Origin: Escherichia coli 042
GTDB taxonomy: Bacteria > Pseudomonadota > Gammaproteobacteria > Enterobacterales > Enterobacteriaceae
DNA: 64,000 bases
Direction: 5' to 3' (one strand)
Assembly: GCF_000027125.1 (NCBI RefSeq)
Contig: NC_017626.1
The notes under the pieces are model-generated. The model was not told the DNA's origin. It did no database searches and saw nothing but the letters and a program-made list of their open reading frames with translations. Position numbers and translations under genes: made by a program. Below are positions 23,897 to 33,615 of this stretch, one piece after another (within the stretch, counting starts at the first letter, position 1; the number at the start of each line of letters is the position of its first letter).

Positions 23897-25974
23897 CATT
23901 TACCGCCAATTGTCGCCGTCATGCGGATATGTCGGTTATCAGATAGTTCCAGATTCGACAGCACCACTAACTGCGGCAAGCTGCGGCGCAGGAAGCGAGA
24001 CAATAATGGTCGCAGCGCGTGGTTCACCAATAAAACTGGCGGCGCACCCAACATCTCCTGACGGGATAGCGCTTCCTGAGTTTGCGCCAGCAAACGATCC
24101 GCCAGCCCTGGCTCCAGTCCGCCCCCACCCTGCAACGCCTGTAGTAACAAACGTTCCAGCGGCGTATCAAGGCCAATAACATGGACTTCATCTTTGCCAG
24201 GAAACCACTGCTGGGTAATCGCCCGTCCCAACGCCACGCGCACGACGGCGGTTAATTCATGTGGATCGCTTTGGATGGGCGCATGTTCCGCCAGCGTTTC
24301 GAGAATGGTGCGCATATCGCGAATCGGTACTTTTTCATCGAGGAGATTTTGCAGCACTTTATGCAGTGTGGTGAGCGTGACGACGCCAGGAACGAGATCT
24401 TCCGTCAGCTTTGGCATCTCCTGGGCGACGCGATCCAACAGCTGTTGCGCCTCCTGACGACCAAACAGCTCTGCGGCATGCTGGCTAATGAGGTGGTTAA
24501 GATGCGTTGCCACCACCGTGCTGGCCTCAACCACGGTGTACCCCTGAATCTGCGCCTGTTCTTTAAGCGCACTTTCAATCCAGATAGCATTCAGGCCAAA
24601 TGCCGGATCGACGGTCGCCTCACCAGGTAACGTCCCGGCAGCGGTACCAGGGTTAATCGCCAACCAACGCCCCGGATAAGCATCACCACTGCCTATCTCC
24701 ACGCCTTTCATCAAAATGCGATAGCGGGCAGGTTGCAGATCCATATTGTCGCGAATGTGCACCACCGGCGGCAGAAACCCCATCTCCTGGGCAAATTTCT
24801 TGCGAATACTGCGTATACGGCCCAGCAACTCACCATCCTGCTGGAAATCGACCATCGGGATCAGGCGATAACCCACTTCCATTCCCAGAGAATCTTCAAG
24901 TTGTACATCGTTCCACGTCGCTTCGACAACGGCATTATTCTCTGCCATTTTTACCGGTTTTGGTTCGGCAGGCGCTTTTTGTTCGCGTCCGCGGATCCAC
25001 CAGGCCAGCCCAAGCAATCCGGCAGTGAACAGCAAAAATACCAGGTTCGGCATTCCAGGCACCAGGCCGAGTAAACCGAGCACGGCGGCGCTTAACAACA
25101 TAACGCTCGGGTTACTGAAAAGCTGATTCACCATCTGCTCGCCAACATCCTGATCGGTGCTGACACGCGTAACGATGACCCCGGCGGCGGTAGAAATCAC
25201 CAGCGCCGGGATTTGTGCCACCAGACCGTCGCCAATGGTCAATAGCGTATAACTTTCCGCGGCGTGTCCCATGCTCATGCCATGTTGCAGCACGCCGACC
25301 AGCAACCCGCCGACAACGTTAATGACCATGATGAGGATCCCGGCGATGGCATCGCCGCGAACAAATTTACTTGCCCCGTCCATTGAGCCGTAAAAATCGG
25401 CTTCCTGAGTCACTTCGGAGCGGCGTTTTTTCGCCTCATCTTCACCAATCAATCCGGCGTTAAGGTCGGCATCAATCGCCATCTGCTTACCCGGCATACC
25501 ATCGAGAACAAAGCGCGCGCCCACTTCCGCAATACGCCCGGCACCTTTGGTGATAACCATAAAGTTGATGATCACGAGAATGACGAACACCACGATACCG
25601 ATAGCGAAATTGCCACCAACGAGGAAGTGACCGAACGCTTCGACCACCTTTCCAGCCGCCGCCGCGCCGGTATGCCCTTCCATCAAAATGATACGGGTTG
25701 AAGCCACGTTAAGTGCCAGACGCAACAGCGTGGTAAACAACAGGATGGTCGGAAACGCAGCAAACTCAAGCGTGCGCTGGGTAAACATCGCCACCAGCAA
25801 CACCATGATCGACAAGGCAATATTGAAGGTAAACAACAGGTCGAGTATGAATGCGGGCAGTGGCAGCACCATCATCGACAAGATCAACAGGATCAAAATC
25901 GGTCCGGCAAGGATCTGCCATTGTGTCGATTTCAGGTTTGCGGGCAGGCGCAGCATCGCGGCCAGATTACTCAT
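23896..25974 (-). CDS. flhA: flagellar type III export apparatus protein FlhA
   Basis: 692 aa from MSNLAAMLRLPANLKSTQWQ; the ORF track over-extends by 25 codons. Confidence 0.95.
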   Translation of the reverse strand: MSNLAAMLRLPANLKSTQWQILAGPILILLILSMMVLPLPAFILDLLFTFNIALSIMVLLVAMFTQRTLEFAAFPTILLFTTLLRLALNVASTRIILMEGHTGAAAAGKVVEAFGHFLVGGNFAIGIVVFVILVIINFMVITKGAGRIAEVGARFVLDGMPGKQMAIDADLNAGLIGEDEAKKRRSEVTQEADFYGSMDGASKFVRGDAIAGILIMVINVVGGLLVGVLQHGMSMGHAAESYTLLTIGDGLVAQIPALVISTAAGVIVTRVSTDQDVGEQMVNQLFSNPSVMLLSAAVLGLLGLVPGMPNLVFLLFTAGLLGLAWWIRGREQKAPAEPKPVKMAENNAVVEATWNDVQLEDSLGMEVGYRLIPMVDFQQDGELLGRIRSIRKKFAQEMGFLPPVVHIRDNMDLQPARYRILMKGVEIGSGDAYPGRWLAINPGTAAGTLPGEATVDPAFGLNAIWIESALKEQAQIQGYTVVEASTVVATHLNHLISQHAAELFGRQEAQQLLDRVAQEMPKLTEDLVPGVVTLTTLHKVLQNLLDEKVPIRDMRTILETLAEHAPIQSDPHELTAVVRVALGRAITQQWFPGKDEVHVIGLDTPLERLLLQALQGGGGLEPGLADRLLAQTQEALSRQEMLGAPPVLLVNHALRPLLSRFLRRSLPQLVVLSNLELSDNRHIRMTATIGGK

Positions 25975-27115
25975 GGGTCGGTTTCTCGTTAATAAAATCC
26001 AGGGCTTCCGGCACCGGAAGATGAGTAGGTTGTACAGGGCGCTGTCCACCGGCCAGACGCCAGCGTTTCAGTTGCCAGACCCAGGCCAGCACTTCCGCCA
26101 CCGCGGCGTACAGTTGACCCGGGATTTGTTGACCGATCTCCGCATGTCGATACAGCGCACGCGCCAGCGGCGGCGCTTCAAGCGTAGGGACGTTATTTTC
26201 AGCGCCAATTTCACGAATGCGCAGCGCGACCAGCCCTGCACCTTTAGCGACCACTTTCGGTGCGCTCATTTTGTTTTCGTCATACTGCAACGCTACCGAA
26301 TAGTGGGTCGGGTTATTGACAATGACATCCGCTTTCGGCACATCGGCCATCATCCGACGCCGCGCGGCAGCTCGCTGCATCTGACGGATCCGCCCTTTAA
26401 CATGGGGGTCGCCTTCGCTTTGTTTGAACTCATCACGAATATCCTGCCGCGACATACGCAGCTTTTTCAGGTGGCTGAAAATTTGGAAAAAGACGTCAAA
26501 TCCCACCATTGGAATGACACCAAGCACCACCAGCAGTGCGCATAGCCCTACCAGATCCATCGCATTACCCATGGCGGTAATCGGAGACTCGGCCATTAAG
26601 CGCATCATCTGCGGCCAGTGATGCCAGAGAAAAAACCCCGTCACGCTGCCAACCAGGATGGTTTTCAAAATTGCTTTAAGTAACTCCGCGCCAGTCTGTG
26701 CCGAGAACATCCGTTTAATCCCCGGTAGCGGGTTGAGTTTGGAAAACTTCGGCTGCAAGGATTTGCCGCTAAATACCAGCCCCCCCAACATGACCGGAGA
26801 AATGAGCGCCACCAGCACCACGCCGCTAATCAGCGGCAGCAGCGCCAGCATGGCTTCTCTGATCAGCAGAATAATTTGCCCGAGGATCAGATTCGGGTCA
26901 TTGATAATACTGTGATCAAAATGCAGCCCAGCGGAGAGCATGCCCGACAATCGACGGGCCAGCGACACACCGCCAAACCAGATAACACTAACGCCCACCA
27001 GCAAAATCAGCAGTGAAGTCAGTTCACGGGAACGCGGGATTTGCCCCTCTTCCCGCGCTTTTTCTAGTCGGTGAGGTGTGGGGGCTTCTGTTTTGTCGTC
27101 GCTCTCGTCAGACAC
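25967..27115 (-). CDS. flhB: flagellar export apparatus switch protein FlhB
   Basis: 382 aa; contains the NPTH autocleavage motif; 8-nt overlap with flhA. Confidence 0.95.
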   Translation of the reverse strand: MSDESDDKTEAPTPHRLEKAREEGQIPRSRELTSLLILLVGVSVIWFGGVSLARRLSGMLSAGLHFDHSIINDPNLILGQIILLIREAMLALLPLISGVVLVALISPVMLGGLVFSGKSLQPKFSKLNPLPGIKRMFSAQTGAELLKAILKTILVGSVTGFFLWHHWPQMMRLMAESPITAMGNAMDLVGLCALLVVLGVIPMVGFDVFFQIFSHLKKLRMSRQDIRDEFKQSEGDPHVKGRIRQMQRAAARRRMMADVPKADVIVNNPTHYSVALQYDENKMSAPKVVAKGAGLVALRIREIGAENNVPTLEAPPLARALYRHAEIGQQIPGQLYAAVAEVLAWVWQLKRWRLAGGQRPVQPTHLPVPEALDFINEKPTHE

Positions 27116-27233
27116 GTCGCCAATCCTGGAAAGAGTATTAAGCGTAAATGATGCCAGAGCGCAAAGCGTTCAATGGTTTGAGTAAGGGGCAAAACAGGCG
27201 GGATTTAGGGCTTTTACTGCCACACATCAAGCA

Positions 27234-27310
27234 TAGTATGCGTTTGTCGGATGCGGCGTCATCGCGTTATACGACCGCCTGATATGACGTAGTCACGCCA
27301 CATCAGGCAA
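27234..27310. repeat. REP-like imperfect palindrome between flhB and cheZ
   Basis: tgtcggatgcggcgtcatcgcg...gcctgatatgacg...cgccacatcaggc. Confidence 0.5.
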
Positions 27311-27316
27311 TACAAA

Positions 27317-27961
27317 TCAAAATCCAAGACTATCCAACAAATCGTCCACCTGATCCTGACTGGCTACCACACCGGCTTTGCTGGTATCGACCTGAGGTCC
27401 ATTAAGCAAACTCTGGTTTTCACGTTTTGGACGCGACTCCTGTTCGGGGATGTTTTCCAACAGCACCATCAGCAACTGACGTTCGATCTCCTGAATGACA
27501 TCCATCATCCGCTTAATGACCTGTCCGGTGAGATCCTGAAAATCCTGCGCCATCATGATTTCCAGCAGCTGCGCGTTAGTAAAGCTGGTATGCGCGGGGA
27601 CATCTGCCAGAAATTGCCGCGTATCTGTTACCAGTTCTCGGGCGTCGGCAAGGTCAATCGGATCGGCAAACCAGTCATCCCAACGTTGGGTTAACGCTTT
27701 TGCTGATTTCTCCATTTGATCCTGATGCGGTTGTGACGCCTCAACACTGTTCAGCGCCCGCTCCGCAGCCTGGGCGGTCATCTGCACAACATAGTACAAA
27801 CGATCGCGCGCATCGGGGATGGCTTCCGCCGCTTCGGCAATGGCCTGATCCAGCCCCAGCTCCCGCAAACTGTCGCGCAGCATACGCGTCAGGCTGCCGA
27901 TGCGCGCAATGATATCGCCAGCTGAATGCTCGTCAGCAGGTTTGATTGATGGTTGCATCAT
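27317..27961 (-). CDS. cheZ: CheY-P phosphatase CheZ
   Basis: 214 aa from [22 protein letters not shown]. Confidence 0.95.
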
Positions 27962-27971
27962 AGTCGCATCC

Positions 27972-29425
<1,454 letters not shown>

Positions 29426-29427
29426 CG

Positions 29428-30288
29428 TTAATCCTTACTTAGCGCATACACCGTCTGACCACGCAGCGTGAAGCGGCGCTCAAGGTGGCTAAAGTTTTCA
29501 GAGTGACCCGCAAACAGCAATCCGTCGGGTTTAAGGAGCGGAACAAAGCGGCGCAAAATCTCCTGCTGGGTAGTTTGATCGAAGTAGATCATGACGTTAC
29601 GACAGAAGATCGCATCAAACGGCCCCGGCACGGTGTACTGTTTCGCCAGTAAATTCAGCGGGGCAAAATCAACATAATTCGCCAATTCCTGACGCACGCG
29701 TACCAGCCCTTCATGCGGTCCCGTCCCTCGCATGAAGTACCGCTGCAGTTGCTGCGGCGTCAGATTTTTCAGCTCTTCATGGCGATAAATACCGCTTCTG
29801 GCTTTTTCCAGCACCTCGGTGTCGATATCACTGGCAAACACTTTCCAGCGTCCGGGCACGGTGCCCAATGTGTCAGCCAGCGTCATCGCAATGCTGTACG
29901 GCTCTTCGCCGGTCGAAGCCGCCGCGCTCCATACGCGATACTCGCCAGAACGACGCCGGGCGTGATCCGCGAGCAGAGGAAAATGATGCGCCTCACGGAA
30001 AAAAGCCGTCAGATTCGTGGTCAGCGAATTGATAAACGCCTGCCACTCACCGCTGTGCTGATTAGATTCCAGCAAGTTCAGGTAATGGCCGAAATCCGTC
30101 AGTCCCAGCGAACGCAAACGACGAACCAGTCGGTTGTAAACCATGTCGCGTTTATGGTCGGCCAGGACGATCCCGGCTCGTTGATAGATCAATTGACTTA
30201 TCCGCCGAAAATGCGCGTCGGAAAGCGCCAGGCGCTCGGTCATCTGTAACAATAAAGACGTTTGCCCACAGGGCAGAGATGAAGTCAT
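29428..30288 (-). CDS. cheR: chemotaxis methyltransferase CheR
   Basis: 286 aa. Confidence 0.96.
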
Positions 30289-30306
30289 AGCGCCTTCTCA
30301 ATCACT

Positions 30307-31908
30307 TCAGGATACCACTGGCGCAATATGTAACTGCGCCGACTCATGTCGTGCTACTTCATGTTCTTCAAGGGTAAATACCGCCACACGCGACGAAAGA
30401 TGGTCAGCCTGGTTCGCCAGTTGTTCCGTTGCCGCCGCCGCTTCTTCTACCAGCGAGGCGTTCTGCTGTGTCACCTGATCCATCTGGCTGACAGCCTGCG
30501 CAACCTGCTCAATCCCCCGCCGTTGTTCTTCCGAGGCCGAAGCAATTTCTCCCATAATGTCGTTCACGCGGGTCACCGAACTGACAATATCAGTCATGGT
30601 CGCGGCGGCGTTATTCACCAGTTTCGAACCCTGCTGGACACGATTGACTGACTCTTCGATCAGCCCTTTGATCTCTTTTGCTGCCTGGGCGCTACGGCTG
30701 GCAAGATTGCGCACTTCACCTGCCACTACCGCAAAACCACGCCCCTGCTCTCCGGCGCGAGCCGCTTCCACTGCCGCATTCAGGGCCAGAATATTGGTCT
30801 GGAAAGCAATGCCGTCGATAACGCTGATAATGTCGCCAATTTTTTGCGAGCTGGTGGCGATCTCCTGCATGGTGTGAGTCATGGTACTGACCTGAACACC
30901 GCCCGCCTGCGCCGTTGTCGCGGCATTTTTTGCCAGTTCCGACGCCTGGCGCGCGTTATCGGCGTTTTGCCCTACCGTGGCGGTTAATTGCTCCATACTG
31001 GCGGCCGTTTGTGCCAGCGATGCCGCCTGCTGTTCGGTACGACTTGAGAGATCGTTATTGCCTGCGACAATCTCCGCGATACCAATGTGCATCTCCTGGC
31101 TTCCCTTACGCACATCACTTACCGTCCCACGCAAAGCCTGCTGCATGGTCTTCAGACTGGCAAAAATGGCGGTGATCTCATTGCGACCATATACCGCAAT
31201 CGGACGCGCCAGATTACCCGCAGCAATGCTGTCAAAATGGCTACCGATAATGGCCAGTGGTTGAACAATCATCTTGCGCGTCCACCACAGCGCACTGCTG
31301 ATGTAGATCGCCGCAACAATAATCATGCTGATAAACACCAGCGCCGAAATCTGATAGTTACGCTGGCTTTGCGCACTGGCAGCTTCCAGCACATGGTTGA
31401 TCTCCTGCTGCCAGGCCTCAAAGTTAACGTCAAACGCATTCTGTGATTCCTGCACCGGCGCAGTGAGGAAATCCGAAAGTTGATTACTTTCAAGCCAGGT
31501 CGCCTGATGTTCGAGATCGTTGTGCCAGCGGGCAAAACTTTTCTCCGTCTCTTTTTGCAACGCCCTGACGTGCTCGTAGCCCGCAGTCATCGCCATAAAA
31601 CTTTTAAACAGCGTGGTGGATTGCGTCAGACTGGCGCGCGCCGTCGTCATCAACGTTTTAATGTCATCCGCCGGATAGCTAAGCGCCGTCAGAGTGCCCG
31701 CTTTGTTCAGCGCGGTACTGGCCTGTAACATTACCGCCCGAGTTTGCGCTAATGCCGCACGTTGCTGATTGCTCTGCTCGACCTGATTCAGTCGTTGCAA
31801 ATCGTCGCGAAATGCCCAAAAAGACATGCCGTTACTGCCAATCTGCAAGATCCCGCAGAGAATCAAAATTAAAAACAGCGTGGTCGAAATTCGAATACGA
31901 TTAAACAT
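30307..31908 (-). CDS. tap: methyl-accepting chemotaxis protein IV (dipeptide/pyrimidine), Tap
   Basis: 533 aa; C-terminal NWETF-less MCP signalling domain; second MCP directly downstream of tar. Confidence 0.93.
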   Translation of the reverse strand: MFNRIRISTTLFLILILCGILQIGSNGMSFWAFRDDLQRLNQVEQSNQQRAALAQTRAVMLQASTALNKAGTLTALSYPADDIKTLMTTARASLTQSTTLFKSFMAMTAGYEHVRALQKETEKSFARWHNDLEHQATWLESNQLSDFLTAPVQESQNAFDVNFEAWQQEINHVLEAASAQSQRNYQISALVFISMIIVAAIYISSALWWTRKMIVQPLAIIGSHFDSIAAGNLARPIAVYGRNEITAIFASLKTMQQALRGTVSDVRKGSQEMHIGIAEIVAGNNDLSSRTEQQAASLAQTAASMEQLTATVGQNADNARQASELAKNAATTAQAGGVQVSTMTHTMQEIATSSQKIGDIISVIDGIAFQTNILALNAAVEAARAGEQGRGFAVVAGEVRNLASRSAQAAKEIKGLIEESVNRVQQGSKLVNNAAATMTDIVSSVTRVNDIMGEIASASEEQRRGIEQVAQAVSQMDQVTQQNASLVEEAAAATEQLANQADHLSSRVAVFTLEEHEVARHESAQLHIAPVVS

Positions 31909-31953
31909 CAACGCTCCCCATCAGGCGGCAATGACCGCGTTAGTAAAAACTCG

Positions 31954-33615
31954 TCAAAATGTTTCCCAGTTTGGATCTTGTTCAGTAATTCGCAGTCGTG
32001 GCTGTGCCGGTGGTTGCTCACTGGCAGGACGGGATGGTGTTTGCGGTTTATTGGTGAGTGGGCTGGCTGCCAGACGGAACGCGGAAACCGCTTGCGTTAA
32101 ACGACTCGCCTGTTCTTCCAGCGCAGCTGCGGCGGCAGCTGATTCCTGCACCAGCGATGCGTTCTGTTGCGTGACGCGATCCATTTCCGAAACCGCCAAT
32201 GCGACTTGATCGATGCCACGGCTCTGTTCATCCGATGCCGATGCAATCTCGCCCATAATGTCAGTCACGCGAGTGACAGCATTGACGATATTGTTCATTG
32301 TTTCCCCGGCGCTTTCGACCAGCACCGAACCGGTATCAACGCGCGAGACGGAGTCTTCAATGAGGGCTTTGATCTCTTTTGCCGCCTGGGCGCTGCGACT
32401 GGCAAGATTACGCACTTCGCCCGCCACCACGGCAAAACCACGGCCTTGTTCACCCGCTCGTGCGGCTTCAACAGCGGCATTCAGCGCGAGGATATTAGTC
32501 TGGAAGGCAATACCATCGATAACGCTGATAATGTCGGCAATTTTCTTCGAACTATCGGCGATCTCATGCATCGTTTTCACTACGCCATCCACCACTTTGC
32601 CGCCGTGCTGGGCGGTGTCGGAGGCACTTTGCGCCAGTTGCGAGGCCTGGCGGGCGTTATCGGCGTTTTGCTTCACTGTCGCGGTGAGCTGCTCCATGCT
32701 GGCGGCAGTTTCTTCCAGCGCGGATGCCTGCTGTTCAGTACGGGAGGAAAGATCGGTGTTGCCCGCCGCAATTTCACGGGTACCGGCATAGATGGCATCT
32801 GAACCTTCACGCACATGAGTGACGGTGTCAGTCAATGAGCGTTGCATATGTGAAACGCTCTGCGCCAGGTCGCCCATTTCACTGCGCCCGTCAATGGTCA
32901 GGGTATTCGCCAGGTTACCACCGGCGATTTCGCGAATGTGAGCAATAATTTTTGCCAGCGGCGTAAGCAACATACGGCGAATGCCGTACCACGCCACCAG
33001 CAGAATCAATACCACCACCAGCGCAATAACCGCCAGTTGCCACTGGGCAAATCGGTAATCATCTGCGTTGTCAGTGACGATATCGCGATACAGTTTTTCA
33101 CTGCTGAGGGCGTACTGAGCAAACGCTTCGCCCATTGCATTTTGCATTCCCTGGGTTGGCTGAGCGAAATAAGCTCCAGTATTGCCATAATCAAGATAAT
33201 CAATCAGTTCAGTTAACGCTGTGTGATAGTTTTTATATTTTTCATCAATATTACGACTGGTAGCGACCATTTCAGGTAACGGTGCCATGCTTTTGAATTT
33301 TTTATAATGAGTCGCTGCCTGGGCCAATGTTTTCCTGGCGCTATCGAGCAATTCAACTTTGGCGTTACTTTGTTGATTTGAGGAATCCATCATCATCCGT
33401 ACCGCTGAACGACTCAGGTTAATGCGCGTTTGCAGCATTAAATCCCAGGTTGACGTCAGCTCGCCCTGCTGTTCCCGTAATTGATTGGAAACCACAAAGC
33501 TCTTCTGGCTATGGTGAAGGGAAGAAAAAAACAGACTGCCGGAAATAAGCTGTAACAGTGCGAATACCCCCAGCACCATTACCAACAGCGTGACTACGCG
33601 GATACGGTTAATCAT
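31954..33615 (-). CDS. tar: methyl-accepting chemotaxis protein II (aspartate/maltose), Tar
   Basis: 553 aa from [18 protein letters not shown]; C-terminal NWETF pentapeptide. Confidence 0.95.

Follow-up and report, generated by a model that had tools for sequence, protein, structure and literature searches.

Tar and tap, two chemoreceptor genes lying in tandem in Escherichia coli 042, share a long stretch of coding sequence, and this raises the question of whether the shared sequence recombines, and whether fused genes have arisen from it in nature. The locus was examined within a window of 64,000 nucleotides (the whole stretch of DNA analyzed). The reading that we consider very probable is that the repeat is coding sequence for the conserved adaptation/signalling domain in two old tandem paralogs, that the likeness of the copies stems from selection on the protein, and that rare in-register exchange between them yields an in-frame hybrid gene.

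The tandem receptor genes and their shared repeat

The genes are tandem and co-directional, both on the minus strand, in the order cheA-cheW-tar-tap-cheR-cheB-cheY-cheZ, as read from the open reading frames and in agreement with the RefSeq annotation of matching genomes (Table 1). The initial annotation correctly took them for a tandem pair of MCP paralogs, tar and tap, and E. coli genomes that carry this annotation match the region at 98-99% identity. Both proteins have TarH (2.3e-41 in Tar, 3.9e-42 in Tap), HAMP (1.6e-11 and 1.8e-09) and MCPsignal (5.2e-63 and 1.8e-56) domains, in that order. The C-terminus of Tar reads ...QDPNWETF; that of Tap reads ...IAPVVS and lacks the NWETF pentapeptide. 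The tar-tap-cheRBYZ operon of E. coli K-12 has the same gene order, lengths and domains, with 98.4% nucleotide identity over 4.1 kb, and differs from the window only allelically. The window itself holds both parental genes intact, and the hybrids described below belong to related loci.

The repeat spans 666 nt, with the two copies in frame and a start-to-start offset of 1701 nt. Identity is quoted here from the ungapped in-frame comparison and amounts to 71.9% (∼72%) at the nucleotide level and 76% at the amino-acid level; a gapped local alignment gave 78%, a figure that was rejected because it was reached only with ∼20 small gaps, which are implausible in a coding region. A long, co-directional direct repeat common to both genes is real and far above chance, since the identity of 0.719 compares with 0.251 ± 0.020 for that 666-nt segment moved to other places in the window (8,668 positions; z = 23.8). 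The description of the copies as near-identical, at roughly 85%, was too high: over the span for which it was made (30480-30900 versus 32181-32601) identity is 72.4%. Identity reaches its highest value, 81%, only across the best 200-231 nt, and two sub-blocks, at 30431-30856 (74.4%) and 30907-31083 (74.6%), are separated by a 54% stretch. The 48-nt motif offered as an example maps to 30670-30717 in tap and 32371-32418 in tar, and the two copies agree at 44 of 48 bases. Under 70% identity, or only shared blocks shorter than 50 bp, had been named as grounds for giving the repeat up; identity lies just above the first figure, while the perfect blocks all fall below the second. The longest of these are 21, 18, and 16 nt in the window and 24, 18, and 16 nt in K-12.

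Table 1. Features of the tar-tap locus, with positions in the window.
Feature	Position	Strand	Description	Basis or remark
tap CDS	30307..31908	-	533 aa; MCP IV, dipeptide/pyrimidine chemoreceptor	ORF, domains, start/stop codons, annotated matches
tar CDS	31954..33615	-	553 aa; MCP II, aspartate/maltose chemoreceptor	ORF, domains, start/stop codons, annotated matches
tar-tap intergenic spacer	31909..31953	-	45 nt; absent from hybrids	
NWETF codons of tar	31957..31971	-	pentapeptide gone in every Tar–Tap hybrid	translation; hybrids end ...IAPVVS
Repeat copy in tap	30420..31085	-	Tap codons about 275-497; methylation helices and hairpin tip	+1701 diagonal
Repeat copy in tar	32121..32786	-	Tar codons 277-499	+1701 diagonal
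Best-conserved core	30640..30870, partner 32341-32571	-	231 nt, 81% nt / 91% aa identical; encodes hairpin tip	
Longest perfect block	30815..30835, partner 32516-32536		21 nt; crossover site of the ET474, PEC389 and protein P0002 hybrids	24 nt (30812-30835) in K-12
Second-longest perfect block	30953..30970, partner 32654-32671		18 nt; crossover site of the ETEC4088 hybrid and the P0001 family	
Third perfect block	30666..30681, partner 32367-32382		16 nt; within the example motif of the initial annotation	
Short perfect blocks	30998-31005; 31007-31010; 31025-31035		8 nt, 4 nt and 11 nt, respectively; crossover sites in draft/Logan assemblies	
Left end of Nissle 1917-type 1375-bp deletion	30408..30415		CCTGGTTC in the window, CCTGATTC in K-12	
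Right end of Nissle 1917-type deletion	31782..31789		CCTGATTC	

Tar–Tap hybrids and the proposed route to them

Complete E. coli genomes (5,426) were searched with a query made up of the two flanks only. In three of them (ETEC4088, ET474 and PEC389) the flanks lie exactly 1701 bp closer together, and each has one intact 535-aa open reading frame between cheW and cheR, with an N-terminal part from Tar and a C-terminal part from Tap. Across 783-787 informative sites, the sequence changes from tar-type to tap-type at one point, and a single breakpoint fits 785-787 of 787. These three genomes represent two independent events, the only two in what we take as the unbiased sample of crossovers, and each breakpoint falls within one of the two longest blocks of the K-12-like background (24 nt and 18 nt); if crossovers were placed uniformly, the chance of both landing there would be ∼0.004. 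None of the mapped hybrids has its crossover in the 16-nt block. The fusions or deletions that the initial annotation had predicted from recombination do occur in register, on a substrate that is homeologous (72%) and with crossovers in blocks of 4-24 nt. The 1701-bp hybrid deletion is rare (3/5,426). For the reciprocal duplication (tar, tap-tar hybrid, tap), a 521-nt junction probe had 5,383 matching places spread over 5,381 genomes, no genome having more than two; this leaves at most one or two candidate genomes, which could instead carry insertion-split copies.

Draft assemblies and a protein search extend the set of hybrids. Proteins P0001, P0002, and P0019-P0026 have the Tar sensing half in frame with the Tap C-terminal half and lack NWETF. 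One hybrid protein is present on 28 contigs and a second on 71 (the index lists 58 and 140 blocks of the collection), and the neighbor order is cheA-cheW-hybrid-cheR-cheB-cheY-cheZ at every place read (24 contigs per hybrid protein); in one carrier (L014), cheR is frameshifted. Additional in-register junctions were found in draft assemblies at the 11-, 8-, and 4-nt blocks, and the junction in the 18-nt block also occurs on a second allelic background. The E. coli in-register hybrids arose several times, with five mapped junctions and at least two backgrounds at one junction. Crossover positions from the protein search were left out of inference, and that set is skewed to early crossovers because late-crossover hybrids are hidden inside the 90% Tar cluster. 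Out-of-register tar/tap fusions, with microhomology of 0-4 nt, also exist. A Tar/Tap mosaic of the same architecture is present in another enterobacterial genus. A Tar of Escherichia fergusonii is fused to the last few tap codons and ends in APVVS.

The hybrids would arise by rare unequal exchange between the co-directional, in-frame copies. Because these copies share the same frame and direction and are 1701 nt (3 × 567) apart, exchange deletes exactly 1701 bp. The product would be one in-frame gene, in which the Tar sensing domain, HAMP and the first methylation helix are joined to the Tap C-terminus, and it would stay under the tar promoter, directly upstream of cheR. The exchange probably takes place at short perfect blocks inside the homeologous tract, with the longest blocks used in the unbiased sample, and could proceed either through RecA, close to its minimal processing length, or by template switching independent of RecA.

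A different reading, implied by the initial annotation, is that the fusions come from classical RecA-dependent homologous recombination over the whole 666-nt homeologous tract, as opposed to short-homology events. Every product in the unbiased sample is perfectly in register, as this reading would have it, and the crossovers fall in the two longest identical blocks, the pattern one would see were a perfect seed required for strand exchange. RecA has a minimal efficient processing segment of ∼23-27 bp, and the 24-nt block of K-12-like strains is near this length; the 21 nt of the window do not exceed what RecA needs for efficient exchange and may fall short of it, and mismatch repair would be expected to act against exchange between sequences that are 72% identical. 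Divergence of 28% is expected to cut RecA-mediated exchange by orders of magnitude, while junctions in blocks of 4, 8, and 11 nt are explained at least equally well by template switching or slipped misalignment, and the same holds for the out-of-register fusions, whose microhomology is 0-4 nt. We regard recombination over the whole tract as a possibility of some weight, though a doubtful one; given crossovers in perfect blocks of 4-24 nt on a 72% substrate, classical long-homology recombination is no more than a candidate route, and the junctions in 4-11-nt blocks together with the out-of-register fusions indicate that illegitimate mechanisms clearly also act at the tar/tap locus.

Source of the similarity and other losses of tap

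The occurrence of hybrids leaves the question of why the two copies resemble each other. Ongoing gene conversion (concerted evolution) or a recent duplication could keep them alike, and the tandem, co-directional arrangement speaks for this; identity is also locally high, at 44/48 in the example motif and 81% in the core, and the same codon is used at a fraction of 0.52 of identical residues, versus 0.39 expected from pooled codon usage. Against this, the excess of shared codons is equal in all three pairs compared (tar-tap, 51.8%; tar-tsr, 51.6%; tap-tsr, 50.3%), and when the same 223 codons are compared across genes, tar has 76.8% nucleotide identity with the unlinked tsr and only 71.9% with tap; for tar-trg, identity in the repeat is 68.9%. 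Synonymous similarity in tar-tap above the level of unlinked paralogs, the signature of gene conversion, was not found when the same-codon fraction was compared with tsr. Matches between tar and tap in the repeat are 83.8% at the first codon position, 85.1% at the second, and just 46.8% at the third, and the longest run of 21 nt is ordinary under codon shuffling (P = 0.18), with longer perfect runs between unlinked paralogs (29 nt for tap-aer and 28 nt for tar-tsr). Furthermore, the N-terminal halves of the two genes are just 42% identical in nucleotides and 25% in amino acids. Homogenisation and recent duplication are both highly improbable on these figures, and the DNA similarity of tar and tap is, as far as the codon comparisons tell, a passive outcome of selection on the protein. 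The E. coli genes tsr, trg, and aer carry the same conserved signalling-domain sequence, with perfect runs of up to 28-29 nt; they are unlinked to tar or inverted relative to it, and exchange with them would therefore remove or invert large segments instead of producing a compact, viable fusion.

Most losses of tap follow another path. While tar and tap are both intact in 4,321 of the 5,426 complete genomes, ∼1,060 (Nissle 1917-type) are without most of tap. Their 1375-bp deletion lies wholly within tap, where it is bounded by 8-bp CCTGATTC microhomologies, and tar itself remains intact. It had surfaced in a whole-region BLAST and was rejected as a tar/tap exchange, both endpoints being inside tap; this internal deletion, and not exchange between the genes, is the usual natural loss of tap. 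Loss of tap is described for strains of E. coli phylogroup B2 and uropathogenic E. coli (Lane et al., 2006; Borziak et al., 2013; as summarized in PMC12623472). Like the hybrids, such strains have Tap function removed by a deletion at the tar-tap locus; unlike them, a deletion of this type spans 1375 bp inside tap, keeps tar, and does not derive from the tar/tap repeat.

The predominance of genomes with both genes intact, and of a main route of tap loss in which tar is uninvolved, could be taken to mean that the shared sequence has no genomic consequence, being conserved coding sequence that has diverged too far for recombination to occur at all. Natural in-register hybrids at several independent junctions speak against this, and we hold it to be very improbable. 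That the hybrids are assembly artefacts is the least credible reading: assemblers can collapse two similar copies and several hybrids do come from short-read assemblies, but the copies are only 72% identical with perfect matches of at most 24 nt (below typical assembly k-mers), hybrids are present in three finished genomes (of Belgian, Chinese, and South Korean origin), the same two proteins recur on their many contigs in many samples, and the junctions are clean and in frame.

Consequences for chemoreception

The paralogy of tar and tap and their common signalling domain are textbook knowledge, and hybrids made in the laboratory are already known; those found in nature add modestly to this. 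Chimeric receptors of both kinds, Tar–Tap and Tap–Tar, were reportedly constructed by Weerasuriya, Schneider, and Manson (1998, J Bacteriol 180:914), and the Parkinson and Simon laboratories are said to have obtained tar-tap fusion deletions earlier. As with the natural hybrids, the laboratory Tar–Tap chimeras reportedly have the Tar sensing half in frame with the Tap signalling half and have lost NWETF; the natural ones differ in being spontaneous alleles of wild isolates (pig, frog, and human-associated), with junctions at natural identity blocks, as set against laboratory junctions known by report. A full-text literature search for earlier reports of natural tar-tap hybrids or recombination turned up nothing beyond mentions of the operon, genotypes of strains, and entries in reference lists, the key papers on tar-region genetics, chimeras, and tap loss being outside its reach.

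Hybrid strains are predicted to keep Tar specificity but to lose Tap-mediated sensing of dipeptides and pyrimidines, and, with NWETF gone, their Tar should offer CheR and CheB no docking site; adaptation of such a receptor would therefore depend on neighboring Tsr. Annotation pipelines call the hybrids plain 'tar', and strains scored as 'tar-positive, tap-negative' may have a Tar without the CheR/CheB docking tail. The locus offers a natural case of how diverged a tandem repeat (72%, with blocks of 18-24 nt) still gives viable in-frame fusions. It is conceivable, although unlikely, that the tandem tar-tap arrangement repeatedly generates new chemoreceptor alleles in nature and that selection has kept some of them; if so, the NWETF-less Tar that all of these fusions, including the mosaic of the other genus and the E. 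fergusonii protein, place behind the strong tar promoter could alter the kinetics of adaptation or the makeup of the receptor array in particular hosts.

Extent and origin of the tar/tap repeat

The chemoreceptor genes tar and tap are separated by a 45-nt spacer, and the 4.1 kb surrounding them has 98–99% identity with thousands of E. coli chromosomes, in which tar is annotated as MCP II and tap as MCP IV. Both proteins contain TarH, HAMP, and MCPsignal domains, with C-terminal ends NWETF (Tar) and IAPVVS (Tap). A mechanical ORF call begins tap with TTG at 31911, one codon upstream (31909–31911); following the RefSeq annotation and the MFNRIR N-terminus, we take the ATG at 31908 as the start codon.

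The two genes share a direct repeat, which falls on one diagonal with its copies offset by 1701 nt. Its ungapped identity of 0.719 is far above chance: placed at other positions of the window, the segment gives 0.251 ± 0.020 (z = 23.8). The initial annotation described near-identical copies (~85%); the repeat is genuine, but its identity was overstated, at 72.4% over the span then proposed, and the 48-nt example offered is present with 44 of 48 bases matching (30670 vs. 32371). Sub-blocks reach 74.4 and 74.6%, with a 54% stretch between them, and 81% is attained only in the best 200–231 nt. Uninterrupted identity extends over at most 21 nt in the window, with the next two blocks at 18 and 16 nt; in K-12 the three longest perfect blocks measure 24, 18, and 16 nt.

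By codon position, tar and tap match at 84–85% of first and second positions and at 47% of third positions. Over the same 223 codons, compared with tsr, trg, and aer from K-12, nucleotide identity is lower for tar-tap (71.9%) than for tar-tsr (76.8%), although tsr sits megabases from tar. Where the residues are identical, the codons agree as well in 51.8% of cases for tar-tap, 51.6% for tar-tsr, and 50.3% for tap-tsr; codon usage by itself predicts 0.39, and the excess is equal in linked and unlinked pairs. The 21-nt perfect run is unremarkable under shuffling of codon columns (P = 0.18). The longest perfect run is 21–24 nt for the tandem tar-tap pair and is exceeded in unlinked MCP paralogs (tap-aer and tar-tsr). 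Because of these codon-position, same-codon, shuffling, and unlinked-paralog results, the similarity is attributed to constraint on the proteins of an old family. The codon-position pattern, the higher tar-tsr identity, and the equal same-codon excess speak against a recent duplication and against gene conversion between neighbors as its source.

Coordinates of the tar/tap locus, its repeat, and mapped junctions (window positions)
Feature	Position	Strand	Detail
flhB-cheZ-cheY-cheB-cheR-tap-tar-cheW-cheA-motB	25.9–37 kb	minus throughout	motility and chemotaxis cluster
tap	30307–31908	minus	533 aa
tar	31954–33615	minus	553 aa
Repeat, tap copy	30420–31085		Tap residues 275–497; methylation helices and hairpin tip binding CheA and CheW
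Repeat, tar copy	32121–32786		Tar residues 277–499; same product
tap-aer perfect run	30772–30800		29 nt; vs. K-12 aer (L008)
tar-tsr perfect run	32295–32322		28 nt; vs. K-12 tsr (L009)
Crossover, ET474 and PEC389	30812–30835		24-nt block
Crossover, ETEC4088	30953–30970		18-nt block
Extra hybrid junction	31025–31035		11-nt block
Extra hybrid junction	30998–31005		8 nt
Extra hybrid junction	31007–31010		4 nt
Out-of-register fusion	32177 (tar) to 31202 (tap)		771 aa
Out-of-register fusion	33008 to 31741		680 aa
Microhomologies of tap deletion	30408–30415 and 31782–31789		8 bp each
LR-45 deletion (equivalent)	24490–31985		7.5 kb

Natural tar-tap hybrids

The initial annotation also predicted that the repeats could recombine into tar-tap fusions, which we tested through comparative genomics in place of long reads. 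The query was 800 nt of unique flanks alone (30020–30419 and 32787–33186), the halves of which join as a single match only where the flanks lie ~667 nt apart. The prediction is supported, in that fusions happen, rarely: among 5,426 complete genomes of E. coli, exactly three carry an in-frame hybrid. They are ETEC4088 and PEC389, from pigs in Belgium and South Korea, respectively, and ET474, from a frog in China. In all three, a single intact ORF of 1608 nt, annotated "tar," lies between cheW and cheR; the frame is kept because 1701 = 3 × 567 and tar and tap share a frame. The 535-aa product joins Tar residues 1 to ~320 or ~365 to the Tap C-terminus and lacks NWETF.

At 787 sites that differ between tar and tap, 785–787 fit a single switch point, tap-type on one side and tar-type on the other. 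Each side is 99.8–100% identical to its K-12 counterpart (tar or tap), and the deletions are therefore recent. The sequences of ET474 and PEC389 do not differ across the retrieved locus, and the complete-genome hybrids are two distinct events. Their crossover blocks are the two longest perfect blocks of that background (chance ~0.004 under uniform crossover placement).

Hybrids extend beyond these three genomes. The two hybrid proteins have exact matches on 28 and 71 contigs (58 and 140 collection blocks in the index listing), and the neighborhood at every place read is cheA-cheW-hybrid-cheR-cheB-cheY-cheZ; this recurrence in constant context led us to reject artefacts. Searching proteins with one hybrid as the query yielded more 535-aa variants, whose junctions were mapped by DNA; the 8-nt and 4-nt junctions, one informative base apart, may be one site, and a second allelic background also carries the 18-nt junction. 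This extended set is skewed to early crossovers, because clustering at 90% identity places late-crossover hybrids with ordinary Tar, and was used for recurrence only. In one isolate with the 24-nt-block hybrid, cheR is frameshifted into two ORFs (L014 4127–4986), and chemotaxis may be decaying in this strain.

Draft assemblies also contain in-frame but out-of-register tar-tap fusions of 656–771 aa (proteins P0017 on contig L021 and P0028 on L022; also P0018 and P0027), with 0–4 nt of microhomology at the junctions. In some, the HAMP and signaling domains are duplicated within one protein.

Other routes of tap loss and related rearrangements

Repeat-mediated loss of tap is real but rare. In ~1,060 of the 5,426 complete genomes, Nissle 1917 among them, tar is kept and tap is reduced to remnants. 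The deletion in Nissle 1917-type genomes is 1375 bp, lies entirely inside tap, is bounded by CCTGATTC microhomologies, and is independent of the tar/tap repeat. The remnant (L001 1983–2134) is a pseudogene that carries the annotation "Tar ligand binding domain-containing protein." These genomes agree with the published absence of Tap from phylogroup B2 strains (PMC12623472).

Several further rearrangements were observed. In E. coli LR-45 (L010), a deletion with ~4 nt of junction overlap takes part of flhA, flhB, cheZYBR, tap, and the last ~10 tar codons including NWETF, leaving a 739-aa tar-flhA fusion ORF. The E. fergusonii Tar (519–521 aa; L018 2501–4060, P0073; cluster P0072, 74 members) is Tar-like to ...AFRL and then ends in TAPVVS, resembling the last Tap residues, with cheR directly next and fimbrial genes, not cheW, upstream; the arrangement resembles an ancient deletion in which tap and NWETF were lost and tar became joined to the final few codons of tap. 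Another enterobacterial genus has a 535-aa receptor (P0084; L020 130–1737, a 2.4-kb contig) whose sensing domain is 65% identical to that of E. coli Tar; this receptor is Tar-like to residue ~360–410 and Tap-like thereafter, which suggests an independent in-register hybrid. A Tar-Trg hybrid (P0051; L023 417–2027, contig 2.9 kb) runs as Tar to ...QNADNA and then as the Trg C-terminus ...EPVSFATV, followed by sequence 98% identical to that downstream of K-12 trg (ydcI side); an inversion of ~0.48 Mb between tar and trg, which have opposite orientations, would account for it, as would misassembly. Two Tar variants on several contigs (P0042, 539 aa; P0043, 542 aa) have in-frame signaling-domain deletions of 14 and 11 residues.

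Mechanism and expected behavior

The repeat geometry, the in-register, in-frame products, and the breakpoints within perfect blocks are established, and in the unbiased sample the breakpoints lie in the longest such blocks. A seed of 24 nt comes close to the minimum for RecA-dependent exchange, and the 20–28% divergence around it should invite suppression by mismatch repair. The 4–11 nt junctions and the out-of-register fusions fit RecA-independent template switching. Strict RecA-dependent exchange is, in our inference, a possible but somewhat doubtful pathway.

Given the literature on NWETF and on laboratory Tar-Tap chimeras, the hybrids should keep aspartate/maltose specificity, lose dipeptide taxis, and adapt poorly without help from Tsr. 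The paralogy of tar and tap, their common signaling domain, and engineered Tar-Tap chimeras are already established, and spontaneous tar-tap fusion deletions were reportedly isolated in the 1980s. We found no description of natural hybrid alleles in the open-access literature, which is only a weak indication that none has been published. What is added here is modest: hybrids occurring in nature, the mapping of their junctions, and their annotation as plain "tar."
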